Position numbers and translations under genes: made by a program. The notes beneath the pieces are model-generated. The model was not told where the DNA came from, ran no database searches, and was given only the letters and a program-made list of their open reading frames with translations. Below are positions 13,034 to 39,674 of a stretch of DNA of 64,000 nucleotides, one piece after another. The stretch comes from Tepidiformaceae bacterium (lineage in GTDB: Bacteria; Chloroflexota; Dehalococcoidia; Tepidiformales; Tepidiformaceae), in NCBI GenBank assembly GCA_965262975.1, contig OZ253575.1, forward strand, positions 2,530,951-2,594,950. The letters are read 5' to 3'. Position 1 is the first letter of the stretch, and the number at the start of each line of letters is the position of its first letter.

Positions 13034-13681
13034 TCATGACTCTCTGCGCGGGGCTGCGGGTCGCACGCGGGCGACGCTGTAGTCGGTTGGGTCGCGGACG
13101 GACTCGTAGTCCGTGAGCTCCAGGCGGTGGCACCAGGTGGAGGGTCTTCGTAGTCGGAGTTCGCTGCCCTTGCCGCTCGACAACCACGCGGCGGTTTCGG
13201 CGCGTTCGCGCCCAAAACGGGTGGCGACGAACTCGAGGGCCGGGAGCAGGTCGGTGTCGGTCGAACAGATGATGCCGGTGTCGTAGGCGCCGTCGATGGC
13301 GCCCGCGACGAAGTCGATTGCGAGCTGCACGTCGATCCCCTTCTCCTCGGCGCGCTGTTCAGGCCAGCGTCGCGGGTACCGCAGGGGGCGGGTGATGACG
13401 ACCGCGCCGGACTGCTCCCAGGCGTGGCACTGGCGTCTATGTGCTCCGTAGGTCTTTGGATCCCTGGTGGCATCTGGTCGACCCGAGTAGACGCGCACTT
13501 GTTCAAGGACGCGGGGCTCGGAGGCAGGGTGGTAGGGGTTCTCGCGACCACAGAGAAGCCTCCCGAGTTCAACTGGGGCGATCTGGCCTACTCGGCGATG
13601 GGACCTGCTCGTCTGGGAGAAGGCACGGGCCCCTTGGTAGACGTTCTGGGCGTCAACGAAGACCGCGACTCGATTGACCAT
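13034..13681 (-). CDS. NYN-domain (LabA/DUF88-like, PIN-fold) putative RNase
   Basis: 215 aa: MVNRVAVFVDAQNVYQGAR...EKGIDVQLAIDFVAGAIDGAYDTGIICSTDTDLLPALEFV. These are the conserved acidic residues of the NYN/LabA fold. No SD; the start codon lies 6 nt after a U-tract. Confidence 0.8.
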   Translation of the reverse strand: MVNRVAVFVDAQNVYQGARAFSQTSRSHRRVGQIAPVELGRLLCGRENPYHPASEPRVLEQVRVYSGRPDATRDPKTYGAHRRQCHAWEQSGAVVITRPLRYPRRWPEQRAEEKGIDVQLAIDFVAGAIDGAYDTGIICSTDTDLLPALEFVATRFGRERAETAAWLSSGKGSELRLRRPSTWCHRLELTDYESVRDPTDYSVARVRPAAPRRES

Positions 13682-13986: not shown

Positions 13987-14046
13987 CGCCACGCGTCGTA
14001 GGTGGGGGAGCGCTTGAGGGGCGGAGACCGCTACCCTTGTGCGGCT

Positions 14047-17000: not shown

Positions 17001-17397
17001 CTCGTTCGTCGCGACGATGGCGCTTGTGGCGGTGGCGCTGCTGGTCTCGCTCTGGATGGCGCTGCAGCGGCGGCGGGTGGAGTTCGCGGTGCTGGGGGCG
17101 ATCGGGCTGACGCGCCGCCAGGTGATGGGCGTGCTCGGTCTGGAGTACGCCATCGTGGGGGTGGTGGGCGTGGCCGCGGGCGTGCTCGTGGGGCAGTTCG
17201 TGGGGCGGCGCATGCTCTCCTTCCTCGACGTGACGGAGGCGGGCCTGCCCGTCGAACCGGGGTTCGTGCTGCAGACGGACTGGACGTTCGTGGTGGTGGG
17301 CGCGGCCGTGGTGGCGGTTGTCTTTGCCATCGCCCTCATCGGCGCCGTGCGGGCGATGGCGCGCACGTCCGATGCGGCCGCCCTCCGCACGGAGTAG
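14047..17397 (+). CDS. Second very large FtsX-type ABC permease (about 1116 aa), divergent from the NYN-ABC operon
   Basis: ORF 14002..17397. ATG 14047 gives MRGLAVLWGLLLRHGAASWRMLAVLALGVLVASTLLASAPIYARAM, the same N-terminal design as the 9640..12999 product. FtsX-like motifs: QIALLRGRGSSTSQIV and EFAVLGAIGLTRRQVM. Confidence 0.88.
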   Translation: MRGLAVLWGLLLRHGAASWRMLAVLALGVLVASTLLASAPIYARAMADLGLKFTVRDELRDEPSIRVGIEAQQLATPDSLAARAAVENRIDERLGWFALDRSMVVESARLTVGTTGAEPRAGTALAVLYAVEGFEQHVLVQEGRLPLPTGPDGPVEVVMGARAAAVARLDLGDEFLLIEEFDNCDRIIPAGLQPQLPCDLKVLVRYSMPAVLTGIIAIEDADSSFWSAASDRYVQPAAPIADSGLVSPMVAHLDAVLGDVAVRYPGQRLRLRWNVLADIDQLDQGNFQRARADMLDLNQDLRVYNGYAISPLAVTLDAFGRSADFQRAPLTILLVQIAAIALFYVALISVAVVERQGEQIALLRGRGSSTSQIVALYALEGLALALPAILVAPFIAGGVTALLGFTPVFNDISGGDLLPVSFEPLAFPLAALGALLSIVALTAPAFVVARRGPQGQRRALARPAASLIQRYYLDVVLVGFALLALWELNERNSVYTPSSTGGVSSDPLLLASPALIIAASAAVLARLYPIVLRVIVRVAGRVVGVAVAMGLWQLVRRPGPYTQLALLLMMAVAVGMFAASYTSTTERSYEDRARFAAGVELRAGASDATFLPSDPARLEAELEAVEGVENASAVMRLEGEIATPNSAGPEVAVLAVSEEAGDLLWWREDFAERTLDAILDRVDSGDILRGVPIPPAAAELSVWVNPELQRTTVTVWARVRDATGRHHLLPFGKLDFRGWRELRAPIESRGFRPLEEPLSLIALILTEPANQFNASEDPVYIDDLSSVDPDGSLNLLEGFEGIVRWEAIPSAARSTDSLQLSRDEAHSGSQAARLEFRRGTTGERRGLFPADRGIPLPVLASEAFLEENSLVVGSEDLLEIDNLIVPFVVRGVYERFPTLPTLDGPSVVLNRDQLLRWGYMVSTTPGDLSRPNEAWLDLAPGADRELLTEALEGFGLRRVVDQEATLASVRSNPLIAASGTGILSISFVATMALVAVALLVSLWMALQRRRVEFAVLGAIGLTRRQVMGVLGLEYAIVGVVGVAAGVLVGQFVGRRMLSFLDVTEAGLPVEPGFVLQTDWTFVVVGAAVVAVVFAIALIGAVRAMARTSDAAALRTE

Positions 17398-17483: not shown

Positions 17484-17513
17484 GGGGTAATTCGAGGGTT
17501 TGGGCTCTAGGGT
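17484..17513 (+). promoter_or_regulatory. Conserved promoter-like box GGGGTAATTC-N14-TAGGGT (copy 2 of 5)
   Basis: GGGGTAATTC gagggtttgggctc TAGGGT, then 6 nt (gagccc) to ATG 17520, implying a leaderless mRNA. Confidence 0.55.
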
Positions 17514-17519
17514 GAGCCC

Positions 17520-18830
17520 ATGATGCGTCGGGCTCGTGCCTGTCTCCCGTTGTTCGCCTTCGTCGCTTCCCTCGCAGCGATGGCGTGCGGCGGCGAGACG
17601 ATCCCTCCCGCCCGCGAGTCCGGCGCATCAGCCCCCACCGCTACTTCGGCCACCCTGGCGGCGGAGCCGACGCGGACGGCCACTCCGACCGCTGTGCTCA
17701 CTGCCACACCCAGCCCCAGCGCCTCGCCCACGCCGACGCCGCCGACCGCCACCGCGACGCCCACGCCCGAACCGACGCCGGGGCGGACGGCCACTCCGAC
17801 CCCCTCGCCCGCGGCCAGGCCCACACCTGATCCGACTCCGGCCGCCACGGCCACACCGATATCTGCGGTGACGCCGACGCCCGAACTGACGCCTGAGCCG
17901 CCAGCCATCGAATACACGCCACTCACGTTCGGGGAGTCCCGTGCGCTGCCTGCGGGGACGACGCTCCATGTCCGGGAGTACTTCGGCTGCCATGGACCTC
18001 AGAATTGGCTCAGGGGAGTCGCCACGGACGAGGGCGAACTGCTGTGGGATTACCCGCTTACCGAACTGCCTCGGAACGACGACGCGGAGTGGGGGGACCG
18101 GGACCTGGTTGGTGTGAGTGCGAGCGGCCAAACCCTTGCGGCCTGGGTCTGCGAGCGGGGAGTGTGCAGGTCTCTCGGCGGCGTTGTGAGTGAGGATGAC
18201 GTCTCCTCGCTCTGGGTCTCGGGCGATGGAGGCGAGACGTGGGAGAGGTGGGGTGAGTTTCCGGAGGGGTGGATTTCGGTCGTCACCGACGACGATGTAG
18301 CCGTCTATTCGGACGATCCTCAACATCGGGCATGGTGGTTCCGCTCAGGGGAAGAAGTGTTGCCTCCAGAGGATCTTCTGAACCCACGCATCTGGGGGTG
18401 GCGAGCGGTCGGAGACCGCACCGAGTCCATCTGGGGAGACAGCGAGGGCACGGTCCTTGTGTCCACTTCTGGCGAGAGTCTTCCCCCCAGGCCTCAGGGC
18501 TTCGGCAGCGTGGCTACCCTGGCTGATGGGTCCATCCTCTGGAGCAGGGTCGAGCCCCGGAGCCGGGGGGAACGGGACCTGTTCCTGCACATGAACGACC
18601 AGGGCACAGGTTTGGCGGCGTATTCGTGGGAGGGCCCGAGGCCCCTGGTGCTCATCGACCAGTTGGACGAGGACTGGTACCTGTTTGTGGGGTTCCTTGG
18701 AGGTTCCTCATGTGGAGCGGTGGGCAGGACGGTGCTCGTGGACTTCAGCACGGGTACGGTGCACACGATCCCCGGGCTCGACGACAGGGCGCGCTTCGTT
18801 CCCTACGCCGCCCGGCCCGCGCCCGACTAG
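17520..18830 (+). CDS. Secreted/lipid-anchored protein with Pro/Thr-rich linker and uncharacterised C-terminal domain
   Basis: 436 aa. Signal peptide MMRRARACLPLFAFVASLAAMAC-GG, then ~110 aa of PT-rich linker (TPSPSASPTPTPPTATATPTPEPTP...). The following W/D-rich globular region (LWVSGDGGETWERWGEFPEGW...) matches no family I recognise. Confidence 0.75.
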   Translation: MMRRARACLPLFAFVASLAAMACGGETIPPARESGASAPTATSATLAAEPTRTATPTAVLTATPSPSASPTPTPPTATATPTPEPTPGRTATPTPSPAARPTPDPTPAATATPISAVTPTPELTPEPPAIEYTPLTFGESRALPAGTTLHVREYFGCHGPQNWLRGVATDEGELLWDYPLTELPRNDDAEWGDRDLVGVSASGQTLAAWVCERGVCRSLGGVVSEDDVSSLWVSGDGGETWERWGEFPEGWISVVTDDDVAVYSDDPQHRAWWFRSGEEVLPPEDLLNPRIWGWRAVGDRTESIWGDSEGTVLVSTSGESLPPRPQGFGSVATLADGSILWSRVEPRSRGERDLFLHMNDQGTGLAAYSWEGPRPLVLIDQLDEDWYLFVGFLGGSSCGAVGRTVLVDFSTGTVHTIPGLDDRARFVPYAARPAPD

Positions 18831-19549
18831 CGGGCGCCCGGGGGGGCGACGAGGACGGCCTGGGCGCTGGCGGGGCTGGCGCCGGCGGGGGCGCGCGTGG
18901 CGATGCGGTCGCCGCCGGTGATGGGAGCGTCGTAGGGCTCGAGGAAGAAGAGGGACACGCCCGCGAAGAGCTGCACGGTGATGGGTCCGTCGGGACCGCT
19001 GAGGGTGATGTCGGCGCCGCCTTCAGTCGCGCCGGGGGTGACGCTCTCCACCCGGCCCCAGAGAACGGGGCGGTGGTTCGGGTTGCTCAGGAGCTCCAGA
19101 CCGGTGAAGCCCGCCGCCGAGCGCGCGAGTCCGTCGGCGAGGGGGGCGCCCGGCTCGCGGATGACGATGACCTGGCGGATGACGTAATTGCGCACGGGGT
19201 CGCCTTCGCCGGTGAACGTGAGCCACTGGCCGCGCTCGATGCCGGAGGGCAGTCCGGGCACGAGCGCCTCGAGCACGACGCCTGGGGGGAGGGCGACGGT
19301 GAGCGGCTCCCCCTCGGTGTTGGCAGACAGGAGCGTGAGCGTCGCGCCGTTGATCTCGCGCACGTCGAAGACGGCGGCGGGGCGGGCCGGCTGGGGCGTC
19401 ACGAACGGCCCCGCCTCCGGGGGCGCGTCGCTGCCGGCCGATTGCGAGACGATGAAGGCCACGGCCCCACCCCCGACTAGCAGCGCCAGCACAACGACGA
19501 TCGCGGCCACGGGCGCGAGCAGCCGCCGTCGCAAGGGGGCAGGCGGCAT
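18827..19549 (-). CDS. Membrane-anchored hypothetical protein
   Basis: ORF 18827..19666. ATG 19549 (verified) gives MPPAPLRRRLLAPVAAIVVVLALLVGGGAVAFIV (signal anchor), followed by an extracytoplasmic domain of unknown family. Confidence 0.6.
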   Translation of the reverse strand: MPPAPLRRRLLAPVAAIVVVLALLVGGGAVAFIVSQSAGSDAPPEAGPFVTPQPARPAAVFDVREINGATLTLLSANTEGEPLTVALPPGVVLEALVPGLPSGIERGQWLTFTGEGDPVRNYVIRQVIVIREPGAPLADGLARSAAGFTGLELLSNPNHRPVLWGRVESVTPGATEGGADITLSGPDGPITVQLFAGVSLFFLEPYDAPITGGDRIATRAPAGASPASAQAVLVAPPGAR

Positions 19550-19621
19550 CAGGGGCTCTTCGATAGCCACGCGCCCATGATAGATGGCGCGCGGCGCGGA
19601 TGGCGGGACCGGGGGGGGGAT

Positions 19622-19651
19622 GGCGTAATTCGGGGCTTCCCCTGTTAGGGT
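19622..19651 (+). promoter_or_regulatory. Conserved promoter-like box GGCGTAATTC-N14-TAGGGT (copy 3 of 5)
   Basis: GGCGTAATTC ggggcttcccctgt TAGGGT, then 6 nt (cgcgcc) to GTG 19658. Confidence 0.55.
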
Positions 19652-19657
19652 CGCGCC

Positions 19658-19681
19658 GTGACACACAGGGGCGTCCTGTGA
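19658..19681 (+). CDS. Candidate leaderless 7-codon uORF (MTHRGVL*) coupled by GUGA to NHL paralogue 1
   Basis: GTG ACA CAC AGG GGC GTC CTG TGA. The TGA overlaps the main-ORF GTG 19678. A CACAGG-ggcgt-CCTGTG hairpin spans the uORF and contains the main start codon. Confidence 0.4.
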   Translation: MTHRGVL

Positions 19682-22035
19682 GGAAGCTGATCGTCGCCGC
19701 GCTGGCCGCGCTGCTCGGCGTGGTGGTGCTGGCGGTAGGCGCCGCCCAGGGGAGTGTGACGGCCAACGTCGAGGTGCGCGTCTGGCAGAACGTCCGGGAC
19801 GACCTCGACATCAGCATCAGCGCCCGTCCCCAGGGTGGCTCGTGGCGGACCCTGGGGGCGGTGGATCTGCCGCTCGACGACGGCGTCAGCGCAACGGGGT
19901 CCCGCTACGGCGACATCGCGCTCGACGTTCCCCTCCGAACCGGGGGTTCTGTAGCCACCATTGAGGTGCGCGTCTGGCAGAACGTCGGGAACCCCAGGCT
20001 CATCTACATCAGCGCCCGGCACGCGGGAGGCTTGTGGAGCACGCTCGGCACTGTCCGCATGCCGATGGACGAGATCAGCCTCGCGGGCCGCTTCCGCTTT
20101 AGCGACATCACCCTCGAGGTTCCGCTTCCCGAGGGGGAGGTCACGACGCTCGTTGGGCGCCAGGGCTTCTGGGGGTACCAGGATGGCAGCGGTACAGCCG
20201 TGCTCTTCGGGGGCAGGGCCGGGGCCGCCCGGATTGTCGAGTTGGCGGCCCACCCCGACGGCCGGGTCATCATTTCGGACAGGTTCAGTAACGCGATTCG
20301 CGAGCTCTCGACCGATGGCGTGGTCACGACGATCGCGGGCGGCATTGGCTATGGGGACGACGATGGCCCCGGCTCAGTCGCGCAGTTCAGCGGGCCCGAC
20401 GATCTCGCCGTCGATGCCGACGGGAACATCTACGTAGCCGACCGGGGCAACGAATTGATCCGCAAGATCACGCCCGATGGCGCCGTGTCCACGATTGCGG
20501 GAGGTGGGCAGGGGGTCGGCGGGGGCCCTGCCCTGGAAGCGGACCTCGACCAGCCGCGCGGGGTTGCGCTCGATGGCTCGGGGAACCTGTACATCCTGGA
20601 GAAGCATCGAATCTTGCTCCTCTCGCCGGAAGGCCTCCTCTCGACGGTCGCGGGAGGAGGGGGGCAGGAACAGGTTGATGGCCCGAGTGAGCGGGCTCAG
20701 TTCGCCCACCTGCATGACATCGACGTGGACGACGCCGGCAACCTCTACGTGATCGACATCGACGATGGGGCGAATACCGAGTCCGCATCAATCCGCAAGG
20801 TCGATGCGAACGGCACGGTCAGCACCCTTCTCTTCAGCAAGCCTCCGAGCCTTGGCGGCCTGCTGGCCTATCCGAACGGTCTTGCGGTAGCGGGCGACGG
20901 GACCGTGTTCGTGGCGAACTCGGGGCGCCACCAGATCGTGAGGCTGACTGCCGAGGGAGAGCTGCGGGGGATCGCCGGAACGGGCGCGGAGGGTTCAGCC
21001 GATGGGCCCGCGGGGACGGCCACGTTCTACCGGCCGAAGTCGCTCGACATCATGCCGGATGGTTCGCTCGTCGTGTTCGACCAGGACGGCACCGTCATTC
21101 GCCGGATCACGCCTGCCGAGGAGGGGTTCCCGCTCGGCACTGTTGCCCTCGCGGAAGGTGAGCAGACCCCGCGGATCGAGGGCGTGGCGGTGAGCGCCTT
21201 TGCCCGCAGCCCGTTCCTCCTCCCAATTGACCTGGCCCGCACCGAAGATGGCTCCATCTTCGTCGGCGACAACAATGATGGCGTCTGGCGGGTCACACCG
21301 GGTAGAAGGTTCGTCGCCCTGGCGGGCGAGAACGGGATGGGCTTCAGCGACGGTCCCGCGGATGAGGCCGAGTTCAGCTCGCCAGAAGGGATCGTCGTCG
21401 ATGGCGACGGCAACATCCTGCTGGCCGACTACGGGAACCGGGCTATCCGCCAGATCGCGCCCGACGGCGCCGTCACGACGGTCCACACGTTCGGGAAGAA
21501 CCCCCATCTGCTGGACTACGACAGCGACGGCAACCTCCTGGTTCTCCTCCGTGGCGGGATTGGCGGGGACGAGATCGTGCGCTTCAGCCCCGACGGCGCC
21601 AGGTCGACGGTCGCCACGCCCCGGTTCGACGCCATCTCGGGCATGGGCGTGAGCCCCGACGGTGAGCTCTGGCTCATAGGCACGGACTACCTGTCCGGCA
21701 CGACGATCGTGAGGCGTGCGAGTAATGGCGACTTCACGACCGTGCTCGAGAGTGGCACGGGCCGGTACGGAGGCCTGTTCTCCATCCAGGTGCGAGGCGT
21801 CGACTTCTCGCCCGACGGCATGGCCTACGTGACGGACTCCAAGTACGGACGCATCCTCAGGATCGCTCCCGACGGCACCGTAGCGACGGTGCTCGACCGG
21901 GAGCAGTTCGGCGGTTCCGCTGACTTCACGCCGCGGGGGCTCGTGGTCACCTCAAGTGGCCTTCTGTTCGTTACCAGCGGAGGGTTCCACCCCTCGCAGG
22001 GTACGGTCTGGCAGATCACGCTCCCGGACGAGTAG
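19678..22035 (+). CDS. Secreted protein: 2x 'VRVWQ' N-terminal module + NHL-repeat beta-propellers (paralogue 1)
   Basis: ORF 19600..22035. GTG 19678 gives the signal peptide MRKLIVAALAALLGVVVLAVGAAQG. Modules: VEVRVWQNVRDDLDISISARPQGGSWRTLGAVDLPLDDGVSATGSRYGDIALDVPL and IEVRVWQNVGNPRLIYISARHAGGLWSTLGTVRMPMDE... About 12 NHL-type repeats follow, e.g. PDDLAVDADGNIYVADRGNELIRKITPDGAVSTIAGG. Confidence 0.85.
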   Translation: MRKLIVAALAALLGVVVLAVGAAQGSVTANVEVRVWQNVRDDLDISISARPQGGSWRTLGAVDLPLDDGVSATGSRYGDIALDVPLRTGGSVATIEVRVWQNVGNPRLIYISARHAGGLWSTLGTVRMPMDEISLAGRFRFSDITLEVPLPEGEVTTLVGRQGFWGYQDGSGTAVLFGGRAGAARIVELAAHPDGRVIISDRFSNAIRELSTDGVVTTIAGGIGYGDDDGPGSVAQFSGPDDLAVDADGNIYVADRGNELIRKITPDGAVSTIAGGGQGVGGGPALEADLDQPRGVALDGSGNLYILEKHRILLLSPEGLLSTVAGGGGQEQVDGPSERAQFAHLHDIDVDDAGNLYVIDIDDGANTESASIRKVDANGTVSTLLFSKPPSLGGLLAYPNGLAVAGDGTVFVANSGRHQIVRLTAEGELRGIAGTGAEGSADGPAGTATFYRPKSLDIMPDGSLVVFDQDGTVIRRITPAEEGFPLGTVALAEGEQTPRIEGVAVSAFARSPFLLPIDLARTEDGSIFVGDNNDGVWRVTPGRRFVALAGENGMGFSDGPADEAEFSSPEGIVVDGDGNILLADYGNRAIRQIAPDGAVTTVHTFGKNPHLLDYDSDGNLLVLLRGGIGGDEIVRFSPDGARSTVATPRFDAISGMGVSPDGELWLIGTDYLSGTTIVRRASNGDFTTVLESGTGRYGGLFSIQVRGVDFSPDGMAYVTDSKYGRILRIAPDGTVATVLDREQFGGSADFTPRGLVVTSSGLLFVTSGGFHPSQGTVWQITLPDE

Positions 22036-22051
22036 CGCTTCGGAGGTGGGT

Positions 22052-22081
22052 GGGGTAATGCCGATGCTCGTCTGCTAGGGT
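22052..22081 (+). promoter_or_regulatory. Conserved promoter-like box GGGGTAATGC-N14-TAGGGT (copy 4 of 5)
   Basis: GGGGTAATGC cgatgctcgtctgc TAGGGT, then 7 nt (cgcgccc) to GTG 22089. Confidence 0.55.
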
Positions 22082-22088
22082 CGCGCCC

Positions 22089-22112
22089 GTGACACATGGG
22101 GGCGCCCTGTGA
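22089..22112 (+). CDS. Candidate leaderless 7-codon uORF (MTHGGAL*) coupled by GUGA to NHL paralogue 2
   Basis: GTG ACA CAT GGG GGC GCC CTG TGA. The TGA overlaps the main-ORF GTG 22109. Same length and position as the 19658 uORF, and a CACA(U)GGG/CCCUGUG hairpin is retained. Confidence 0.4.
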   Translation: MTHGGAL

Positions 22113-24595
22113 GGAGGCTGATCGTCGCGGCGGTGGCGGCGGTGCTCGGCCTGGCGGTGGTGGCGACTGCTGCGGCGCAGGGTGAGACGACGGCGCGGAT
22201 CGAGGTGCGCGTCTGGCAGGACGTGGGGGACGAACTCGACATCTACATCAGCGCGCGCCCCGAGGACGGCGACTGGATGGGGCTGGGGACGATCCCGTTG
22301 CCGCTGGACGATGGAGTGAGCTCCACGGGCCGGTTCCGCTACGGCGAATTCGCGGTCGATGTGCCCCTGCCCGGCCGGGCGGCGCCGGCAACGGTCGAGG
22401 TGCGCGTCTGGCAGGACGTGGGGAACAGCGCAAGTTTCTACATCAGCGCGCGCCCGGCGGAGGGTGACTGGAGCAGGCTGGGGACGATTCCGCTGCTGCT
22501 GGATGACGGGGTGAGCTCCGTGGGGTTCCGCTACGGCGATATCAGCCTCGAGGTGCCCGTCCCGCCCAGCGAAGTTTCGACCCTCGCGGGCTGGCCCGGT
22601 GTGGAGGGGTACGTTGATGGGCAGGGTGATGAGGCGCGATTCGGGGCGTTCGGCTTCCTCCTCCAGCACCAGCCCTGGGCCCTCGGGCTGGCCGCTGATC
22701 GGGACGGGAGCGTGGTTGTAGCGGACTACTACAACAATGCCATCCGCCGGATTGCGCCGGAGGGGACGGTTACGACGGTCGCCGGCGCCGGCCAGGGCAT
22801 GCTGGACGGCGAAGCGGCGCTTGCCCGGTTCTCCCAGCCGCGTGATGTAGCCGTGGACCCGCAGGGGACCATCTATGTGGCCGACGAGGGGAACAACCGC
22901 ATCCGCAAGATCACTGCGGACGGGGTGGTCACCACCGCCGCCGGAACCGGCCAGTCCGGGTACGGTGACGGCCCTGCCGAAGAGGCCCTCTTTGAATCCC
23001 CGCTCGGCGTTGCCCTGGGGCCGTTGGGCGACCTCTACATCATCGAGCGGACGCGGATCAGGCGCCTTTCGCCCTCGGGCCAGGTCTCGACGTTCGCCGG
23101 TGGCGCCAGACGCGGCACGCGCGATGGCTGGAGAGAGAACGCCCAATTCTCCTCCCTGCAGGACATCGAGATCGACGACTCGGGCAACATTTTCGTCATC
23201 AATGTCAATGACAGCTTCGGGGATATGACCGAGTACTCATCCATCCGCCTCATCGACACCAGCGGTACCGTCAGCACCCTCCTGCGAAGCGAGGGGCTGA
23301 ACCTTGGGGGGGCGCTGGGCTTCCCGGGAGGCATTGCGCCCGCGGGCGACGGCGGTGTCTACCTGTCCAACAGCGGCCTCAACCAGATCATCCGGGTCAC
23401 CCGCACGGGCGAGATCGAGGGCGTGGCCGGGACGGGAGAGGGTGGCTACCTGAACGGGCTCCGAAGCGAGGCGCGCTTCAGCCTTCCGGGGTCGATCGCG
23501 GTCTCGTCCACTGGCGTCCTGTTCGTGGCCGACCAGGCGGCCACGGTCGTTCGTGCGATTGATCTGGGTGGCCGAGGGCTTTCCGTGGGCCCCGTGCCCC
23601 TTGCGCAGCACGAGGGACCCCCGCGGATTCCCGGTGTTGTGGTCGCGGCGGTCCCGCTGCCGGAATCTTTCTTCCCCGTCACGATGGTGCTGGACCCCGA
23701 CGGCAACCTCGTGACATCCGCCCAGTTCCGCCACGAGATCCAGCAGCTTGCCCCGGACGGGACGGTCACGACCCTGGCGGGCGGAAACGGCGAGGGGTTC
23801 CTGGATGGCCCGGGCGACGAGGCGCAGTTCTCTCAGCCCCGCCTGCTTGCCGTGGATGCGGAGGGCGCCGTCTTCGTGCTGGACACGGGCAATCAAGCCA
23901 TCCGCCGCGTCGCGCCCGATGGGACGGTCACAACGGTCCTTGCCCGGCTCTCCCTGAGAGTCTGGGCTATCGAGGATATGGCTGTGGATCAGGACGGCAA
24001 CCTGCTCATCGTCGAGGGCAGCAGCATCTGGCGCCTCCGGGACGGAGCGCTCTCGCCTGCCGGCGACGCCCAGGGGCATTGGATAAAGGCCATTGACGTG
24101 GACGAGAGCGGACAGATCCACGTCGCGGCCGGGTTTACGGGCCTCGTGGGCAGGATCGATGAGACTGGCGGCTTCACCACGCTGCTGGAGGCTCGACCGG
24201 GATGGTACGGCGGCGTGCTTTCCGGCTTCTCGCCAGGCATCGCGGCGGGGAGCGACGGCACGGTCTACGTGCTCGACTTCGACTACCAGAGGGTGCTGAG
24301 CATCTCCCCGGAGGGGGAGGTCGCAATCGTGGTCGACCGCGAGTCGTTCCCCGGGGTGCGAACCTTCTATCCAACGACCATCCTGTTGACCCCCGAGGGC
24401 GATCTGCTCTTGGGTGACGGCGGCAGGATCTGGAGGGTCACGCTCCCGGAGCGGCCGTGGTGGGGTAATTCCCCTGGTGGTCTGCTAGGGTCGCGCGATG
24501 CCGCCTGCGGGGAGCGTTGCGAGAGGGCTGGTCATCCTGGCGGTGGCGGCCGTGCTCGGGCTGGAGGTGGTGGCGGGCGTCGGGGCGCAGGGTGA
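22109..24595 (+). CDS. Secreted 2x 'VRVWQ' + NHL-repeat protein (paralogue 2) with read-through C-terminal extension
   Basis: 828 aa: MRRLIVAAVAAVLGLAVVATAAAQG, IEVRVWQDVGDELDIYISARPEDGDWMGLGTIPLPLDDGVSSTGRFRYGEFAVDVPLP, and a second module. NHL repeats, e.g. PRDVAVDPQGTIYVADEGNNRIRKITADGVVTTAAG. Paralogues end at ...ITLP(D/E)E*. This copy continues RVTLPERPWWGNSPGG... for ~58 aa, across the next promoter box and the next gene's start. Confidence 0.8.
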   Translation: MRRLIVAAVAAVLGLAVVATAAAQGETTARIEVRVWQDVGDELDIYISARPEDGDWMGLGTIPLPLDDGVSSTGRFRYGEFAVDVPLPGRAAPATVEVRVWQDVGNSASFYISARPAEGDWSRLGTIPLLLDDGVSSVGFRYGDISLEVPVPPSEVSTLAGWPGVEGYVDGQGDEARFGAFGFLLQHQPWALGLAADRDGSVVVADYYNNAIRRIAPEGTVTTVAGAGQGMLDGEAALARFSQPRDVAVDPQGTIYVADEGNNRIRKITADGVVTTAAGTGQSGYGDGPAEEALFESPLGVALGPLGDLYIIERTRIRRLSPSGQVSTFAGGARRGTRDGWRENAQFSSLQDIEIDDSGNIFVINVNDSFGDMTEYSSIRLIDTSGTVSTLLRSEGLNLGGALGFPGGIAPAGDGGVYLSNSGLNQIIRVTRTGEIEGVAGTGEGGYLNGLRSEARFSLPGSIAVSSTGVLFVADQAATVVRAIDLGGRGLSVGPVPLAQHEGPPRIPGVVVAAVPLPESFFPVTMVLDPDGNLVTSAQFRHEIQQLAPDGTVTTLAGGNGEGFLDGPGDEAQFSQPRLLAVDAEGAVFVLDTGNQAIRRVAPDGTVTTVLARLSLRVWAIEDMAVDQDGNLLIVEGSSIWRLRDGALSPAGDAQGHWIKAIDVDESGQIHVAAGFTGLVGRIDETGGFTTLLEARPGWYGGVLSGFSPGIAAGSDGTVYVLDFDYQRVLSISPEGEVAIVVDRESFPGVRTFYPTTILLTPEGDLLLGDGGRIWRVTLPERPWWGNSPGGLLGSRDAACGERCERAGHPGGGGRARAGGGGGRRGAG
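24462..24491 (+). promoter_or_regulatory. Conserved promoter-like box GGGGTAATTC-N14-TAGGGT (copy 5 of 5)
   Basis: GGGGTAATTC ccctggtggtctgc TAGGGT, then 6 nt (cgcgcg) to ATG 24498 (leaderless main ORF). Confidence 0.55.
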
Positions 24596-27047
24596 GGCGA
24601 CCGCACGCGTGGAGGTGCGCGTCTGGCAGGACGTGGGGGACGAGCTCGACATCCAGATCAGCGCGCGTCCCGCGGCGGGCTCGTGGCGGACGCTCGGGAC
24701 TATCGCGCTGCCGCTCGATGATGGGGTCAGTTCGACGGGCTACAACTACGGGGACATCGCGCTCGACGTGCCCCTGGCCAACTGGGCCTCGCCGGTGACG
24801 GTCGAGGTGCGTGTCTGGCAGAACGTAGGCAACAGTCGAGTCATCTATATCAGTGCCCGTCCGTCCGCCGGCTCGTGGCAGACGCTGGGCACGATCCGGC
24901 TGCCACTGGACGACGGCTTCAGTTCGACCGGGCGGTTCCGGTTCGGCGACATTGGCCTTGATGTCCCCTTCCCCGAGGGTGGTGTGAGGACGCTTGCGGG
25001 AACCCCGGGCCTATGGGGGTTCCGCGACGGCAGTGGGGAGCATGCGCGCTTCGGCGGGTGGCCGCGCAACGGGGCGCTCGGGTTGACGGTGGATCGCGAC
25101 GGGAGCGTCGTTGTGGCCGATCGCTGGAATCATGCCATCCGGCGCATCATGCCCGACGGAGTGGTCACAACCGTCGCCGGGGGCAACGGGGCGGGTCTGG
25201 AGGATGGCCCCGGGGAGACGGCGCGGTTCAACTCGCCTCGAGATGTAGCGGTGGACATCGACGGCTCCATCTACGTTGCCGATGGCGAGAACCATCGCAT
25301 CCGGAAGATCACACCCGAGGGCGTGGTGTCGACGATTGCGGGCAGCGACCGCGGCGGAGCGGACTGGAGGGAGATACGGGATGGTCCCTCCGAGCAGGCA
25401 TTGTTCGCAGGGCCTACCGCGCTCGTTCTGGATCCGTACGGCGACCTGTACATCGTCGAGCGCTTTGCTCTCAGGCGACTATCGCCGTCGGGCTGGGTCT
25501 CGACCGTCGCCGGCGACAACGGCTGGGGCTGGCGCGATGGTCCGAGGGAGGTGGCGCAGTTCCAGAGCTTGTATGACATTGCCGCCGATGACGCGGGCAA
25601 CCTCTATGTGATCGACGACACCAGGGGTTCGGTTGGTTCGGGCGGCACGGTCCTGGCGATCCGCAAGATCGATACGTCCGGCATGGTCACGACCCTCTAT
25701 CGCGACGGCTACCCGTCGTTGGGTGGAACCCTGGCATACCCCTCCGGGCTGGCGGTGACGGGCGATGGCACGGTCTACCTTGCGAACACGGGGCGCCACC
25801 AGATCGTCAGGCTGACAGCCGAAGGCGAGCTGCGGGCCGTTGCGGGCACCGGCGAGAAGGGCCACCTTGATGGTCCTCACGGTGCGGCCAACTTCAGCTT
25901 GCCCCGGAGAATCGCGTTCTCTCCCGATGGCGCGCTGATTGTGGCCGACCAGGATGGGAGCGTGGTCCGCAGGGTCGTTCCGGGCGAGGGCGGGCCCGGG
26001 GCCGAAACCATCCCGCTGGCGGACTTTGAAGCACTTCCCCGCGTGCCCGGCGTGCGCGTCAGCGTCTTCGCCGGGGCGGGCGACCAGGGGTTTGTAGACG
26101 GTCCCGCCGGACAAGCGCGGTTCGTGTTGCCGCGGGGACTGGCGGTGGACGGCTCGGGGAACGTGATCGTCGCCGATGGCTTGAACGAAGCCATCCGCGC
26201 CATCGCCCCAGATGGAACGGTGACGACGATTGCGGGAGGCAGCGGGAAGGGCGCTCGCGATGGTCCATGCGAAGAGGCCCAGTTTGGATGGCCCACGGGC
26301 GTGGCCGTCGACGCGGACGGCTCCATTTATGTTGCTGACTCGAGTGGAAACAGCATCCGCAGGATAGATACCGGTGCCGATTGCTCCGTCACGACCGTCG
26401 CGGGCCAAGGGCCGGTCTCATCCCAGGAGGAGGGTTGGGGCGGCTTCCGCGATGGGCCTGCCGCCGCGGCGGAGTTCCGCTCGCCCGGTGCGCTTGCCTT
26501 CGACTCCGAGGGCAACCTCTTCATCGCCGATACCGAGAACAACCTCATCCGGCGGCTCTCCCCTGGCGGCCAAGTCTCGACTATCGCCGGTCCTGCCGGT
26601 GGGTTCAGGGGCAATCTGGGGACTCAAGATGGGCAGGGTGAGTACGCCCTGTTCTCATCTCCCCGGGGGATCGCCGTCGACTCCGAGGGCAATGTCTTCT
26701 TTACCGAGGCCAACAATGCAATCCGCCGGATCGATCGCAGCGGCTTCGTCTCGACGGTGATCAGCACACCTGACTACGGGGAGGGGGGAGCGCTTTCGCC
26801 CTTCCTGATCGGAATTGCGGTTGGCCCGGATGGCGAGCTTTACATTGCCGACGGCGGCTTCGGCCGCGTTCTCAGGCTTACACGCGATGGGATTCTCTCC
26901 ATTGTCGCTGATGCCCAGCACAGTGTCGGGTCTCGGCGCCTGGACCCAAACGGGATTGTCGTGACGCCAGCCGGCGACCTCTTCATATCAGACAGCAGCA
27001 CGAGTTCGATCCTGAAGATCACCTTCGAGGATGAGGGGGACGAGTGA
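24498..27047 (+). CDS. Secreted 2x 'VRVWQ' + NHL-repeat protein (paralogue 3)
   Basis: 849 aa: MPPAGSVARGLVILAVAAVLGLEVVAGVGAQG, VEVRVWQDVGDELDIQISARPAAGSWRTLGTIALPLDDGVSSTGYNYGDIALDVPL, VEVRVWQNVGNSRVIYISARPSAGSWQTLGTIRLPLDDGFSSTGRFRFGDIGLDVPFP, then NHL repeats. Here the leaderless start is fused in frame to the signal peptide. Confidence 0.85.
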   Translation: MPPAGSVARGLVILAVAAVLGLEVVAGVGAQGEATARVEVRVWQDVGDELDIQISARPAAGSWRTLGTIALPLDDGVSSTGYNYGDIALDVPLANWASPVTVEVRVWQNVGNSRVIYISARPSAGSWQTLGTIRLPLDDGFSSTGRFRFGDIGLDVPFPEGGVRTLAGTPGLWGFRDGSGEHARFGGWPRNGALGLTVDRDGSVVVADRWNHAIRRIMPDGVVTTVAGGNGAGLEDGPGETARFNSPRDVAVDIDGSIYVADGENHRIRKITPEGVVSTIAGSDRGGADWREIRDGPSEQALFAGPTALVLDPYGDLYIVERFALRRLSPSGWVSTVAGDNGWGWRDGPREVAQFQSLYDIAADDAGNLYVIDDTRGSVGSGGTVLAIRKIDTSGMVTTLYRDGYPSLGGTLAYPSGLAVTGDGTVYLANTGRHQIVRLTAEGELRAVAGTGEKGHLDGPHGAANFSLPRRIAFSPDGALIVADQDGSVVRRVVPGEGGPGAETIPLADFEALPRVPGVRVSVFAGAGDQGFVDGPAGQARFVLPRGLAVDGSGNVIVADGLNEAIRAIAPDGTVTTIAGGSGKGARDGPCEEAQFGWPTGVAVDADGSIYVADSSGNSIRRIDTGADCSVTTVAGQGPVSSQEEGWGGFRDGPAAAAEFRSPGALAFDSEGNLFIADTENNLIRRLSPGGQVSTIAGPAGGFRGNLGTQDGQGEYALFSSPRGIAVDSEGNVFFTEANNAIRRIDRSGFVSTVISTPDYGEGGALSPFLIGIAVGPDGELYIADGGFGRVLRLTRDGILSIVADAQHSVGSRRLDPNGIVVTPAGDLFISDSSTSSILKITFEDEGDE

Positions 27048-29524
27048 ACGTGCGCGGCAAGTGGCAGGCCCCAATGCGCAGACTGACGCTGGTGGCGGTG
27101 GCGGCGGTGCTTGGCCTGGCGGTGCTGGCGACGGGTGCGGCGCAGGGTGAGGCGACGGCGCGTATCGAAGTGCGTGTCTGGCAGGACGTGGGGGATGAGC
27201 GCGAGATACACGTCAGCGCCCGCCCGGCGGATGGTTCGTGGCGGACGCTGGGCACGATTCCCCTGCCGCTGGAGGATGGCGTTAGTTCTGCGGGAGACCG
27301 CTACGGGGAGTTCGTTGTCGACGTTCCGTTGGTCGATTGGGCGGAGCCACGAGTCGTGCACGTCCGGGTCTGGCAGAACGTGCATCTCGGGAGCGAAATC
27401 TCCATCGGGGCGCGTCCAGCGAGCGGCCTGTGGAGCACGCTGGGAAGGCTCTCGCTGCCCCTGGACGACGGGTTCAGCTCCAGTGGCCGGTATCGCTACG
27501 GCGACGTTGCGTTCACGGTGTCGCTCCCCGAGGAGCAGGTCAGGACGCTGGCTGGCGCGCCCCGCATCCATGGATACGTCGACGGTCCCAGCGAGACGGC
27601 GCGATTCGGGAGGTTCGGGGAGAGCTCCATGGGTCTGGAGGTTGATCGCGACGGAAGCGTGGTCGTGGCTGACTTCCGCAATCGCGCGATTCGCCGCGTC
27701 CTGCCCGATGGGACGGTTACGACCATCGCGGGGGGGAACGGTTCTGGAACGCTAGACGGGCCCGCGGAGATCGCGCAGTTCGAGGGTCCTACGGATGTGG
27801 CTATCGACCCGCAGGGCAACATCTACGTCGCCGACTGCCGGGGCCACCGCATCCGCAGGGTCACACCCGAGGGGATGGTGACGACCGTCGCCGGCGGAGA
27901 GCGGGCCGAGGACGGGATGTGGCGCCGTGTCGATGGCCCTGCCGAAGAGGCCCGCTTTGTCGCACCCTGCCACATTGCGCTCGATCGCAACGGCGACATC
28001 TACATCACCGAGCAGTACACCATCAGGCGAGTCTCCCCTTCGGGCTGGGTCTCCACGTTCGCAGGGGGGAGTGGACTGGGCTACGTAGACGGACCGAGAA
28101 GGGACGCCGAGTTCGCCTACCTGGAGGACATCGGCATTGATGCCGGGGGCACTCTCTACGTGCTCGACACCAACCCGTTTGTACGTGAGGGGCATGGCCC
28201 CCGCTACGCCGTTCGCAAGATCGACGCCACGGGTTCGGTGTCGCCGGTCTTCCGGAGCGACATTCCAACGGTTGGGGGGACGCTCGTCTCACCTTCCGGC
28301 ATGGCAGTGAGTCCAGGGGGCGAGATCTATCTGACGAACACCGGGCGCCACCAGATTGTGAAGGTCCTGGGACTCAACGGACTGCAGGCGCTGGCCGGTA
28401 GCGGCGAGGACGGCCACATGGACGGCCTTCCCGTCGACGCCGCCCTCAGCGAGCCCGGGGCGCTTGCCCTCTCTCCGGGAGGGGCGCTCGTCGTGGTGGA
28501 CCAGGCCGACAGCGTCGTACGCGTCGTCCTGCCGCAGTCTGACGGGAGCTTCGCTTCGGTGGAGCCTGCCGAGGCTCCCAAGTTCCCGCGGCTGGAGGGG
28601 GTTCAGGTGGACCTATTCACCGGCCAGGGAGGGCCTGGGGTCGCTTCTATCGACGGGTATCTCGATGGTCCGGCGCGACAGGCCCTCTTCGACGGTCCCC
28701 GGGGAATGGCGCTTGCACCCGACGGAAGTGTCATCGTCGCAGACACGGACAACAAAGCGATTCGCCGTATTTCTCCTGAAGGGATCGTGTCCACGGTAGC
28801 CGGTGCCAACGGAGCCGGGCTGCGAGACGGCCCGCCCGGTGAGGCTCAGTTCCGCCGGCCATTCGCCGTGGCTGTGGACAGCGACGGGGCCATCTACGTT
28901 GCCGATGACGTCAGGTTCGTTGCCGAAACCGGCGACTACCTCATCCGCAAGATCGCGCCCAATGGTGAAGTGAGCACGGTCGACATGAAGGGGGGGCCGT
29001 TCTACAACCTCGGGGCGTTGGCCCTTGATGCCGTAGGCAACGTTCTGTTCACCGAAAGCGGCCATGGTCGCATCCGGCGCCTCTTGCCGGATGGCGAAGT
29101 GTCGACTGTGGTGGACTTAGGCAACGCCTACATTTCGGGGCTTCTGCTGGACGATGAGGGCACACTCTTCTTTGCGGCCCGTCTCCATGAGGAGGAGAGA
29201 ACCACCATCCAGAAGGTTGGCGACGATGGGGCTGTTTCAAGGGTGTTCCAGGGCACTCCCCGTCGCTTTGGCCGAATTCTCTCGACCTTCCTCCCGGGTC
29301 TGGCTCTTGCCCCTGATGGAATGCTGTATGTCGCGGACTGGAGCTACGGCCGAGTGGTCCAGGTCTCGCCCGATGGGGAGGCCGTGATCGTTATTGGGCG
29401 TGATTCGTCCAACAACCTCAAGCACTTTAACCCCTCCGCGATTCTCGTGACGCCGGAGGGTGATCTGCTCGTGGCTGACTCGAGCGGGAGCGTCATCTGG
29501 AAGATCACGCTCCCCGAGGAGTAG
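27044..29524 (+). CDS. Secreted 2x 'VRVWQ' + NHL-repeat protein (paralogue 4)
   Basis: 826 aa. GTG 27044 overlaps the stop of paralogue 3 (GTGA); the alternative ATG 27074 gives MRRLTLVAVAAVLGLAVLATGAAQG. No promoter box of its own. Modules: IEVRVWQDVGDEREIHVSARPADGSWRTLGTIPLPLEDG... and VHVRVWQNVHLGSEISIGARPASGLWSTLGRLSLPLDDG..., then NHL repeats. Confidence 0.85.
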   Translation: MNVRGKWQAPMRRLTLVAVAAVLGLAVLATGAAQGEATARIEVRVWQDVGDEREIHVSARPADGSWRTLGTIPLPLEDGVSSAGDRYGEFVVDVPLVDWAEPRVVHVRVWQNVHLGSEISIGARPASGLWSTLGRLSLPLDDGFSSSGRYRYGDVAFTVSLPEEQVRTLAGAPRIHGYVDGPSETARFGRFGESSMGLEVDRDGSVVVADFRNRAIRRVLPDGTVTTIAGGNGSGTLDGPAEIAQFEGPTDVAIDPQGNIYVADCRGHRIRRVTPEGMVTTVAGGERAEDGMWRRVDGPAEEARFVAPCHIALDRNGDIYITEQYTIRRVSPSGWVSTFAGGSGLGYVDGPRRDAEFAYLEDIGIDAGGTLYVLDTNPFVREGHGPRYAVRKIDATGSVSPVFRSDIPTVGGTLVSPSGMAVSPGGEIYLTNTGRHQIVKVLGLNGLQALAGSGEDGHMDGLPVDAALSEPGALALSPGGALVVVDQADSVVRVVLPQSDGSFASVEPAEAPKFPRLEGVQVDLFTGQGGPGVASIDGYLDGPARQALFDGPRGMALAPDGSVIVADTDNKAIRRISPEGIVSTVAGANGAGLRDGPPGEAQFRRPFAVAVDSDGAIYVADDVRFVAETGDYLIRKIAPNGEVSTVDMKGGPFYNLGALALDAVGNVLFTESGHGRIRRLLPDGEVSTVVDLGNAYISGLLLDDEGTLFFAARLHEEERTTIQKVGDDGAVSRVFQGTPRRFGRILSTFLPGLALAPDGMLYVADWSYGRVVQVSPDGEAVIVIGRDSSNNLKHFNPSAILVTPEGDLLVADSSGSVIWKITLPEE

Positions 29525-29535
29525 CGGCCCCCGGA

Positions 29536-30348
29536 CTACCTCGCCTTGGAGCCGCCGTCGACCTGGTAGTAGGCGCCGGTCATGAAGGATGACTCGTCGC
29601 TCAGGAGGAAGGCGGCGAGGGCGGCGACCTCGTAGGGCTCGCCGTAGCGGCGCAGGGGCAGGCCCGCGGCGATCTCCCGGTAGCGTCCCTCGGGGTCGTC
29701 GGGATCGCCGCCGCGCTCAATGGAACGCATCATGCGCGTCTCGATGGGGGCCGGGCAGATGGCGTTCACGCGGATGTTGTCGCGGGCGAACTCGAGCGCG
29801 GCCGTGCGCGTGATGCCGATCACGGCGTGCTTGCTCGCCCCGTAGGCGACCAGGTGGGGCGTGCCCCCCAGACCCGCCGTCGAGGCGGTGTTGACGATGG
29901 CGCCGCCGCCGCGCGCCCGCATCGCGGGAGCGACCGCCTTCAGCCCCAGCCAGACGCCCTTCACGTTGACGGCGATAACCTTGTCGAACATCTCTTCGGG
30001 GTAGTCGGTCAGGGGCGTGACCACACCCTCAATGCCGGCGTTGTTGAAGAAGCCGTCGATGCCGCCGAAGCGGTCCACCGCTTCGTTCACGTAGCGCTCG
30101 TGGTCGGCCCAGACAGTCACGTCGGCGGGGACGGCGAGGGCCTCGCTGCCGGCTGCCTCGACGGCCTCGACGGCGCCGTCGAGATCGCTGCCTGGCAGGT
30201 CGACGGCAACAATGCGCGCCCCTTCCTGCGCGAGCCGGACGGCGGTCGCGCGGCCGATGCCGCCCGCCCCGCCGGTTATGACCACGACCTTGCCTTCGAA
30301 GCGCCTGCCAATGTTCTCTACGCCCTCGGCTGCTGCGCGCTCGCTCAT
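29536..30348 (-). CDS. SDR-family oxidoreductase (short-chain dehydrogenase)
   Basis: TGGAGGIG cofactor motif, NNAG, catalytic S...YGASKHAV. ATG 30348 is preferred (GGGAGGA SD 5 nt upstream) over the track start at 30369. Confidence 0.9.
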   Translation of the reverse strand: MSERAAAEGVENIGRRFEGKVVVITGGAGGIGRATAVRLAQEGARIVAVDLPGSDLDGAVEAVEAAGSEALAVPADVTVWADHERYVNEAVDRFGGIDGFFNNAGIEGVVTPLTDYPEEMFDKVIAVNVKGVWLGLKAVAPAMRARGGGAIVNTASTAGLGGTPHLVAYGASKHAVIGITRTAALEFARDNIRVNAICPAPIETRMMRSIERGGDPDDPEGRYREIAAGLPLRRYGEPYEVAALAAFLLSDESSFMTGAYYQVDGGSKAR

Positions 30349-30450
30349 GACATCCTCCCGGGGCTGCACGCCCGCGGCGTAGTCTAGGAGAGCGGGGAAC
30401 GAAGGGGGCGCTGACGGATAGGGGCGGCGGCGCTATTCTGTGAGTTCTGT

Positions 30451-30527
30451 CGGGGTGTAGCTCAGCCAGGTAGAGTGCTTCGTTCGGGACGAAGAGGTCC
30501 CCGGTTCAAATCCGGGCACCCCGACCA
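30451..30527 (+). tRNA. tRNA-Pro (anticodon CGG), CCA encoded
   Basis: Hand-folded cloverleaf. Acceptor CGGGGTG/CACCCCG. D arm GCTC-AGCCAGGTA-GAGT. Anticodon arm CTTCG-TTCGGGA-CGAAG (34-36 = CGG). Variable AGGTC. T arm CCCGG-TTCAAAT-CCGGG. Discriminator A, then CCA. Confidence 0.92.
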
Positions 30528-39633: not shown

Positions 39634-39674
39634 GAGTTCTATGTTCGCTGACCGTGAGATTGCTTGCTGCTACG

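Follow-up and report, generated by a model that had tools for sequence, protein, structure and literature searches.

What does a small duplicated domain contribute to the four large, apparently exported proteins that carry it side by side in one genome? This question is raised by a gene array in the window, that is, the whole 64,000-nucleotide stretch of contig OZ253575.1 of a Tepidiformaceae bacterium that we analyzed. The array consists of four genes, G1 to G4, each encoding a predicted signal peptide, two copies of a module with the motif VRVWQ, and two NHL beta-propellers. A preliminary description made from the letters alone had recognized this layout and had read it as an extracellular binding repertoire. 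We find that the module is a domain family of its own, placed at the N-terminus of many otherwise unrelated proteins, which bears on what it may do here. The four genes and their products, with lengths in amino acids (aa), are the following:

19678..22035, + strand: G1, 785 aa; signal peptide, module a (aa 27–90), module b (aa 91–154), two NHL propellers
22109..24595, + strand: G2, 828 aa; signal peptide, modules at aa 27–91 and 92–155, two NHL propellers, 47-aa read-through tail
24498..27047, + strand: G3, 849 aa; signal peptide 1–33, modules at 34–97 and 98–162, propeller 1 at approximately 163–495, propeller 2 at approximately 519–845
27044..29524, + strand: G4, 826 aa; signal peptide, modules at 37–100 and 101–165, two NHL propellers; without leader element

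The four consecutive open reading frames (ORFs) have zero internal stops, and two modules and NHL matches were found in each of them, in agreement with the single architecture ascribed to these same-strand genes. The eight module copies align over 64 to 66 columns with a mean column identity of 71%, and the residues V-R-V-W-Q-x-V, A-R, G, W, L-G, S, G, and V are invariant among them. The module is 64 aa long and the two copies of each protein abut with zero linker; the duplication claimed in the preliminary description was thus recovered by the profile in every gene, and the length of 55 to 60 aa given there was too short. A profile of 61 modules run against the six-frame translation of the window gave exactly 8 matches (domain E-values 1e-27 to 1e-34), 2 of them in each gene, and no module copy elsewhere in the window. 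Across these 61 modules, which come from unrelated proteins, 16 of the 64 positions are invariant or nearly so. All eight copies in the array carry the signature of the proposed VRVWQ family: E-V-R-V-W-Q, S-A-R-P, G-S-W-x-T-L-G, L-P-L-D-D-G, and R-Y-R-Y-G-D. The AlphaFold model of the G3 module pair, computed with 22 homologous pairs, is all-beta and confident (predicted local distance difference test [pLDDT] 93.2, predicted template modeling score [pTM] 0.87), with three long strands per module and, in each, a conserved loop region of 23 residues.

We searched for relatives of the module at the level of sequence and of fold. Permissive Pfam scans of the module pairs (reporting limit E≤10, with HMMER filters dropping most matches above approximately 0.1) gave chance matches only, the best being CBM_25 with an E-value of 0.045 and 14.5 bits against a cut-off of 27.3 bits, and the NCBIfam scan under the same limit returned nothing. 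Searching PDB sequences with the 61-module profile gave only chlorophyll a/b-binding proteins, which were rejected as chance matches (E>0.3). The fold search covered PDB and BFVD, and small beta domains are hard to match in this way: against PDB, Foldseek with the module-pair model found nothing better than E=0.13 at template modeling (TM) scores of 0.21 to 0.33. The best BFVD match reached E=7e-3 yet had a TM score of 0.35 at a root mean square deviation (rmsd) of 14.8 Å and was rejected. No mention of the motif VRVWQ was found in the searched literature, and the database entries of these proteins are called "hypothetical protein" where they have a name at all, most having none. Hence, the preliminary description was right that the module cannot be assigned to a named family: the VRVWQ module is an undescribed domain family, outside every curated family tested.

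To see where else the module occurs, as the preliminary description had suggested, we searched 1.84 billion representatives clustered at 50% identity with the 61-module profile using HMMER. This gave 652 clusters at E≤1e-3, 481 of them at E≤1e-10. Architecture statistics were taken from 137 of the listed representatives. The pair sits 13 to 75 residues from the N-terminus in 117 of the 137, and by a crude hydrophobic-run test a hydrophobic run precedes it in 105 of these 117 N-terminal members; 12 of the 137 are 5'-truncated ORF calls, and 3 carry the pair C-terminally. In almost every representative, one module directly adjoins the other. What follows them varies in length from 0 to 1962 residues, and bulk Pfam scans found the following payloads among the 137 proteins:

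NHL propellers: 32
trypsin-like proteases: 19
LRR: about 12
RCC1: 6
Big_5: 6
Alpha-2-macroglobulin/MG2, He_PIG, and CarboxypepD_reg: few each
CAP, GH3 (P0188), and a LivJ-type solute-binding domain (P0184): 1 each
no Pfam match: many

The payload domain types, immunoglobulin-like (Ig-like) domains among them, are all extracellular or envelope-associated. Proteins consisting of the pair only and proteins with a single module also occur. An initial search with the module pair returned only proteins of up to 240 aa, in which one or two modules stood ahead of unrelated sequence, of RCC1 repeats, or of nothing; several were frameshifted fragments of long genes, and the lengths from that search were excluded from the architecture statistics. 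Altogether, these results show that the module is not tied to NHL propellers, and that it is a portable N-terminal cassette placed ahead of unrelated extracellular payloads. Because it is shared by unrelated exported proteins, its likely role moves from being part of a binding repertoire to shared targeting or anchoring.

Two groups of related proteins have layouts of their own. P0039, P0042, P0043, P0047, and P0066 are small (approximately 190 to 230 aa), exported-type proteins starting with MKNWIIA, in which a single VRVWQ module is followed by a Pro/Ala/Thr-rich linker and a short variable C-terminal domain that contains Cys in several of them and has no Pfam match. P0214, P0215, and P0117 combine LRR repeats and an NHL double propeller in one protein of 1150 to 1190 aa, the module pair of P0117 being at residues 355–484. 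From such combinations of LRR and NHL, the payload domains may be shuffled as well.

The other half of the array proteins is an ordinary member of the NHL family. Downstream of residue 165 or so, all four match PF01436 (94–180 bits; cut-off 20) and PF25021, TEN_NHL (105–149 bits; cut-off 27.1). The AlphaFold model of full-length G3, computed with 54 homologues, has a pLDDT of 88.7 and a pTM of 0.84, and its DSSP strands form two propellers of six four-stranded blades, each closed by an N-terminal strand. Both phmmer and Foldseek found only propellers in PDB: teneurin-like 9ifo, teneurins, SOQ1, NHLRC2, TRIM71, PknD, and Pizza6. The best sequence match is 9ifo (E=1.7e-49), the best fold match (teneurin/TLP NHL) has E=8e-27, and the model superposes on Pizza6 with a TMt of 0.87 and an rmsd of 2.8 Å. 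None of these PDB propeller matches aligns to the first 165 or so residues. The Pfam matches, the PDB relatives, and the model of twice six blades therefore uphold the identification of NHL propellers made from the letters. As had also been proposed, the paralogues are diverged at the protein level: identity within the window is 52–70% in the modules and 40–49% in the propellers, and the least conserved stretch is formed by blades 4 and 5 of propeller 2. Three further observations concern what the propellers resemble. G1, G3, and G4 score above the whole-protein cut-off of NCBIfam NF033206 (ScyD/ScyE) by summing partial stretches over generic blades, the best of which cover approximately 70 to 180 of 333 model positions. 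Each protein matches PF24684 (Vgb_lyase; 290 positions, 50-bit cut-off) in one partial stretch, with 42.3, 49.9, 64.3, and 50.6 bits for G1 to G4, respectively, scores that appear consistent with generic propeller similarity. SGL and Phytase-like Pfam models match the array proteins too.

We also examined the ends of the four genes. The reading frame of G1 is open from 19600, and the array start of 19622 in the preliminary description lies out of frame. The start of G1 is most likely GTG 19678, because this codon aligns with the start of G2 and because the orthologue P0131, 95% identical to G1 in an alignment running from the modules to the C-terminus, is called as 785 aa. G3, to which P0205 is 100% identical, has lost the GTG homologous to the G1 and G2 start and uses an upstream ATG at 24498. 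The GTG start of G4, the most diverged copy of the four, overlaps the stop codon of G3 (GTGA), which suggests translational coupling. All G2 orthologues stop at ...TLPDE or ...TLP; G2 lacks this stop codon here and therefore has a private C-terminal extension of 47 codons (24455–24595), which runs in another frame through the leader and the signal-peptide region of G3. The extension, private to this genome, is either a real stop loss or an assembly error. We considered pseudogenization of the array and rejected it, since all four ORFs are intact and the sole defect, the stop loss of G2, extends the protein rather than truncating it.

Read by eye, the N-termini of G1 to G4 have a positively charged n-region and 15 to 20 hydrophobic residues and end in AAQG or GAQG, so the signal-peptide-like N-termini noted earlier are present in all four. 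Residues 1–32 of the G3 model are disordered, as befits a signal peptide, and no transmembrane segment follows the signal peptide in the array proteins. From these features we infer that the four precursors are exported via a Sec-type signal peptide; the RR present in the N-termini of G2 and G4 leaves Tat export formally open.

The module has a narrow distribution. A scan of GTDB with one genome per species gave 172 confirmed matches, the best 80 of which were kept and correspond to 71 loci. Within these best 80 of 172, the loci come from Chloroflexota metagenome-assembled genomes (MAGs) labelled Dehalococcoidia or Tepidiformaceae, with 2 exceptions: one MAG labelled Anaerolineaceae, and one 5-kb contig labelled Gemmatimonadetes that is probably misbinned. 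For these 80 matches, the module is almost entirely restricted to the Dehalococcoidia lineage. Several closed chromosomes have at least 7 to 9 module ORFs in the fetched loci. Tepidiformales were first detected in marine sponges, where Tepidiformaceae are prevalent, and cultured Tepidiformales are monoderm, with 20 to 30 nm of peptidoglycan and a tetragonal S-layer bearing additional protein complexes (PMC10284905). The organism studied here probably has peptidoglycan as well, because the window encodes an alanine racemase, an SLT lytic transglycosylase, and an M23 peptidase. In sponge symbionts, host-interaction domains are enriched, and the domain classes reported to be overrepresented in sponge microbiomes include NHL and LRR (PMC9531527). 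The name series of MAGs with the module (SB06xx, IRC) fit sponge metagenome projects, and SB06xx includes the sponge-specific Entoporibacteria; because of these name series and the literature on the lineage, a sponge origin of this genome is likely. The window also encodes, at 39654–40811, a PQQ/BamB-like beta-propeller protein (PF13360), a repeat class reported as enriched in sponge symbionts.

What, then, would the module pair do? We favor, with a probability of roughly 45%, the reading that it is a lineage-specific envelope-retention module that displays variable NHL binding heads. The locus would be a conserved expansion site for exported surface-protein genes in the Dehalococcoidia lineage. 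Once the signal peptide is removed, the mature protein would start with the module pair, which would bind a conserved envelope component non-covalently; peptidoglycan, a secondary wall polymer, and the S-layer are the candidates. Facing outward, the diverged NHL double propellers would serve as variable ligand-binding heads, with the sponge host matrix or other cells as presumed targets, and the paralogues might in this way provide the diversified binding repertoire suggested earlier. The anchoring role, the ligand, and a part for the propellers in host interaction are all inferred; the first follows the pattern of SLH and CWB2 anchors, because the module stands directly after the signal peptide, occurs in tandem copies, is conserved above the level of the payloads, and is found in many paralogues with unrelated payloads in organisms with a monoderm S-layer envelope.

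Several points weigh against such an anchor. The argument is one of analogy in architecture, and no similarity of the module in sequence or fold to SLH, CWB2, LysM, or another known wall-binding domain was found in Pfam, NCBIfam, PDB, or BFVD. No IMG/VR phage contig encodes the module, a mild negative because wall-binding modules are often borrowed by endolysins. The fusion to a solute-binding domain (P0184) is an orphan with no ABC permease genes adjacent, which makes it weak evidence for surface retention. A free lectin would explain the proteins made of the pair only no less well than an anchor would. In the NHL proteins, propeller 1 follows module 2 without a flexible linker and the full-length model is compact, so the modules could be an integral part of the binding head. 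Finally, the sponge provenance of the module-bearing MAGs is indirect, drawn from isolate names and the lineage literature.

Of the competing explanations, the one that holds up best, although we regard it as unlikely, is that the pair is a lectin-like or matrix-binding adhesion domain for glycans or proteins of the sponge mesohyl, which would make the family one of adhesins or secreted effectors. Conserved Trp, Tyr, Arg, Asp, and Glu residues are predicted to lie on strand faces and loops, following the alternation in VEVRVWQ and RYRYGD, which resembles a typical carbohydrate-binding surface; neither Pfam nor Foldseek, however, detected a CBM or lectin fold. The existence of pair-only and small single-module proteins agrees with a lectin, as do the description of the lineage as sponge-prevalent (PMC10284905) and the enrichment of symbionts in host-interaction domains (PMC9531527). 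It is harder to see why solute-binding, GH3, alpha-2-macroglobulin, and trypsin-like payloads should need a host-binding tag, and anchors, more typically than lectin domains, keep strictly to a place directly behind the signal peptide, as the pair does in 117 of 137 proteins.

That the module is a self-association unit, forming oligomers or a surface lattice or docking on a partner protein in the manner of cohesin and dockerin, we consider doubtful, since beyond the syntenic locus no partner gene recurs consistently beside module genes. In its favor, the model predicts rigid packing of the two modules (pTM of 0.87 for the pair), single-module proteins could complete the unit by dimerizing, and extra protein complexes decorate the S-layer of cultured relatives (PMC10284905); if the partner were the S-layer protein itself, this explanation would overlap with anchoring.

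Slightly less probable still is a highly diverged version of a known small beta domain (Ig-like, CBM, or prodomain) serving as linker or stalk. The difficulty that Foldseek has with small beta domains, in a search that covered PDB and BFVD, speaks for it. Ig-like folds are nevertheless abundant in PDB and usually easy to find, and the best match was the one at E=0.13 and TM 0.21 to 0.33; nor was there a Pfam or NCBIfam match at permissive thresholds, and passive stalks are seldom as conserved as 16 of 64 positions across 61 modules. The notion that the propellers are enzymes (lactonase, ScyE-like, or streptogramin-lyase-like) and the array a set of exported catalysts is the least credible, for although G1, G3, and G4 exceed the NCBIfam ScyD/ScyE cut-off and SGL, Vgb_lyase, and Phytase-like Pfam matches occur, these matches are summed short stretches over generic blades (for example, positions 252–323 of the 333-position ScyE model), G1 and G2 do not exceed the Vgb_lyase cut-off, the best solved relatives (teneurin, TLP, TRIM71, PknD) are binding propellers, and the neighbors are FtsX permeases, SDR, DUF302, and M23 rather than genes of scytonemin or related pathways.

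We next describe the chromosomal site, which the envelope-retention reading treats as an expansion site. Three genes define the surroundings of the array:

17520–18830, + strand: lipoprotein-like gene, 436 aa; lipobox-like N-terminus (...LAAMACGG), Pro/Thr-rich linker of approximately 100 residues, no Pfam match
18827..19666, − strand: 279-aa single-pass membrane protein, no Pfam match; left border of the array, divergently oriented
29536..30369, − strand: SDR-family oxidoreductase; right border of the array

The same site recurs in about 15 genomes, with 1 to 5 module genes in varying order. Its gene order is a pair of FtsX-type permease genes of approximately 1120 aa, the 279-aa membrane protein on the opposite strand, the module genes, SDR, DUF302, and M23. 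Homologues of the 279-aa protein (52–95% identical) stand directly upstream of the module block in 16 related loci, and SDR homologues (81–96% identical) flank the block in 17. The interval between these two genes (18827–30369) is a copy-number hotspot in L001–L009, L013, L021, L023, L048, L065, L071, and L072; the L013 site has a gene with a shorter payload (352 aa). The genes flanking the array are 95–99% identical to ENA contig L072 and 80–91% to the "Tepidiformaceae" chromosome OZ246422.1, and the close relative L001 is 80–94% identical to the window. Where the window has four module genes, L072 has two.

Some neighbors deserve a separate mention. The FtsX-type permease proteins in the window, 1119 and 1131 aa long and encoded divergently at 9640–12999 (− strand) and 14002–17397 (+ strand), share approximately 30% identity with each other; an NYN-domain gene (13034–13681) sits between them, and the pair is found beside the array in many genomes. 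The lipoprotein-like gene varies between relatives: its N-terminus is conserved in L072, where most of the gene is apparently absent. Between the SDR and DUF302 genes, at a distance of approximately 0.9 kb downstream from the array, there is a tRNA gene (30451–30524; Rfam, 65 bits), which may have a bearing on the plasticity of the locus.

In a neighbor-joining tree of 34 array genes, G1, G2, G3, and G4 fall in four separate clades, each together with orthologues from other genomes, and the gene order in L001 is x-G1-G3-G2-y. The four orthologous clades and the differing gene order indicate old duplications followed by gain, loss, and rearrangement, so the proposal that the array is no recent duplication stood up to this analysis. 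Whole-gene ratios of nonsynonymous to synonymous substitution rates (dN/dS) are 0.26–0.46 by the Nei-Gojobori method; they were estimated on orthologue pairs because the paralogue dS, 0.83–1.29, is saturated. This range implies moderate purifying selection, is incompatible with pseudogenes, and supports the maintained function that had been postulated. Third-position G+C is 0.77–0.84 in the four array genes versus 0.89–0.93 in adjacent genes, in a window of 68–70% G+C overall, which could reflect lower expression, weaker codon adaptation, or a different history.

The 5' module regions (19678–20140, 22109–22575, and 24498–24985) were compared with L001 and L072. Between near-identical orthologues, about half of the amino-acid differences lie in the module region, that is, in the first 129 residues: 24 of 47 for G2 versus L001_12580, and 19 of 35 for G1 versus L072_5008. 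The G1 modules are 91% identical to L001_7566 and 85% to L072_5008, and the G1 propellers are 88% and 97% identical, respectively. L072_7441 has propellers of the G4 clade, and its modules share 83% identity with those of G3. Because a module region often has another nearest relative than the propellers of the same gene, these comparisons point to recombination or gene conversion of 5' cassettes between paralogues.

The array genes also share a sequence upstream of their starts. The element GTAAT-N16-TAGGGT occurs four times in the window, with the same spacing each time, versus 0.01 copies expected by chance:

17487..17513, + strand: element before the 436-aa lipoprotein-like gene, ending 6 nucleotides before the ATG at 17520
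19625..19677, + strand: G1 leader; element at 19625–19651, then approximately 26 nucleotides with a GGGG run before the GTG
22055..22108, + strand: G2 leader; element at 22055–22081
24465..24497, + strand: G3 leader; element at 24465–24491, inside the G2 read-through tail

All four copies are upstream of exported-type genes, namely the lipoprotein-like gene and G1 to G3, and the same element precedes the homologue of the lipoprotein-like gene in L072. Since the first copy ends 6 nucleotides before the ATG, a nearly leaderless mRNA is implied for that gene. A longer version of the element, with up to 2 substitutions allowed, has 41 copies in 1.44 Mb of related loci, 25 of them 100 to 201 nucleotides ahead of a first module, also in genes whose payload is not NHL, and 16 elsewhere. 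A sigma-70 consensus scan of the array found no promoter, the conserved element being unlike TTGACA/TATAAT; TAGGGT agrees with the TANNNT form of the −10 box, which is common in high-G+C bacteria. A structured RNA was considered for the leader and rejected, since it has no Rfam family and its fold energies are like those of shuffled sequence (z = −1.1 to +0.6). The better reading is that the element is a putative promoter, with a short 5' untranslated region, common to a set of exported-protein genes, and it may mark a regulon.

More tentatively than the anchoring role itself, the VRVWQ pair can be seen as part of an unrecognized surface-display system, in which a wall- or S-layer-binding tag would be combined with the GTAAT-N16-TAGGGT promoter type and with recombination and copy-number change of 5' cassettes that would reshuffle the repertoire. 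If this were true, the proteins tagged by the module would include the "eukaryote-like" NHL and LRR proteins to which a role in host interaction is ascribed. Such repeat proteins (NHL, LRR, ankyrin) have long been listed as candidates for host interaction, and that literature has not established their location or presentation. A module shared by exported NHL, LRR, protease, and Ig-like proteins predicts a common location or a common partner for them. Its profile picks out a defined set of proteins, the 652 clusters, and the pair, at approximately 130 aa, is small, confidently modelled, and amenable to expression and testing. As an anchor, it would represent a new family of wall-binding domains in Chloroflexota, a phylum with poorly known envelope biology; a ligand in the host material would make it a new adhesion domain.

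Compared with known systems, what is new is the module family, and what is known is the gene class, NHL proteins of sponge symbionts. The array proteins are like the NHL "eukaryote-like proteins" of these symbionts in their exported NHL propellers, their multiple copies per genome, and a lineage described as sponge-associated. That literature counts Pfam domains and does not include the N-terminal double module, its fusions to other payloads, or the array locus (PMC9531527). With teneurins and the teneurin-like NHL domain (PF25021; PDB 9ifo, 6fb3) the array proteins share the six-bladed NHL propeller, but they lack the YD-shell, the FN-plug, and the toxin domain and have instead tandem propellers behind an unrelated module. 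No Rhs/YD Pfam matches were found in them, only the NHL part aligns (query 525–705 to chain 986–1164), and the proteins end right after propeller 2. The PknD sensor of Mycobacterium tuberculosis (PDB 1rwi), from which the Pizza designs are derived, likewise has an extracellular six-bladed NHL propeller in a bacterium that is not a classical Gram-negative; whereas PknD is held at the membrane by its transmembrane kinase, the array proteins have the module pair at the N-terminus. ScyD/ScyE (NF033206) share an exported NHL-type propeller, but the array proteins match partial stretches only, there is no scytonemin cluster nearby, and the organism is not a cyanobacterium.

The comparison from which the anchoring role is argued is that with envelope-bound proteins of other monoderms. 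In SLH proteins (Bacillus, Thermoanaerobacter) and in the CWB2 "Cwp" proteins of Clostridioides difficile, all from Firmicutes, triplets of SLH or CWB2 modules bind the envelope non-covalently, the SLH domains through pyruvylated secondary cell-wall polymer. The module of the array differs in having two copies of 64 aa, versus three of approximately 55 aa in SLH and of approximately 90 aa in CWB2 proteins. The permissive Pfam scan of the module pairs gave no match to SLH (PF00395), of which three copies rather than two would be expected, and none to CWB2 (PF04122), for which there was also no PDB fold match at E<0.1. The likeness is one of organization: a signal peptide, a tandem small conserved module at one end, a highly variable functional domain (protease, adhesin, hydrolase, LRR, or Ig-like), many paralogues per genome, and a monoderm S-layer envelope, an arrangement by which the VRVWQ proteins may be a counterpart of the SLH and CWB2 families.

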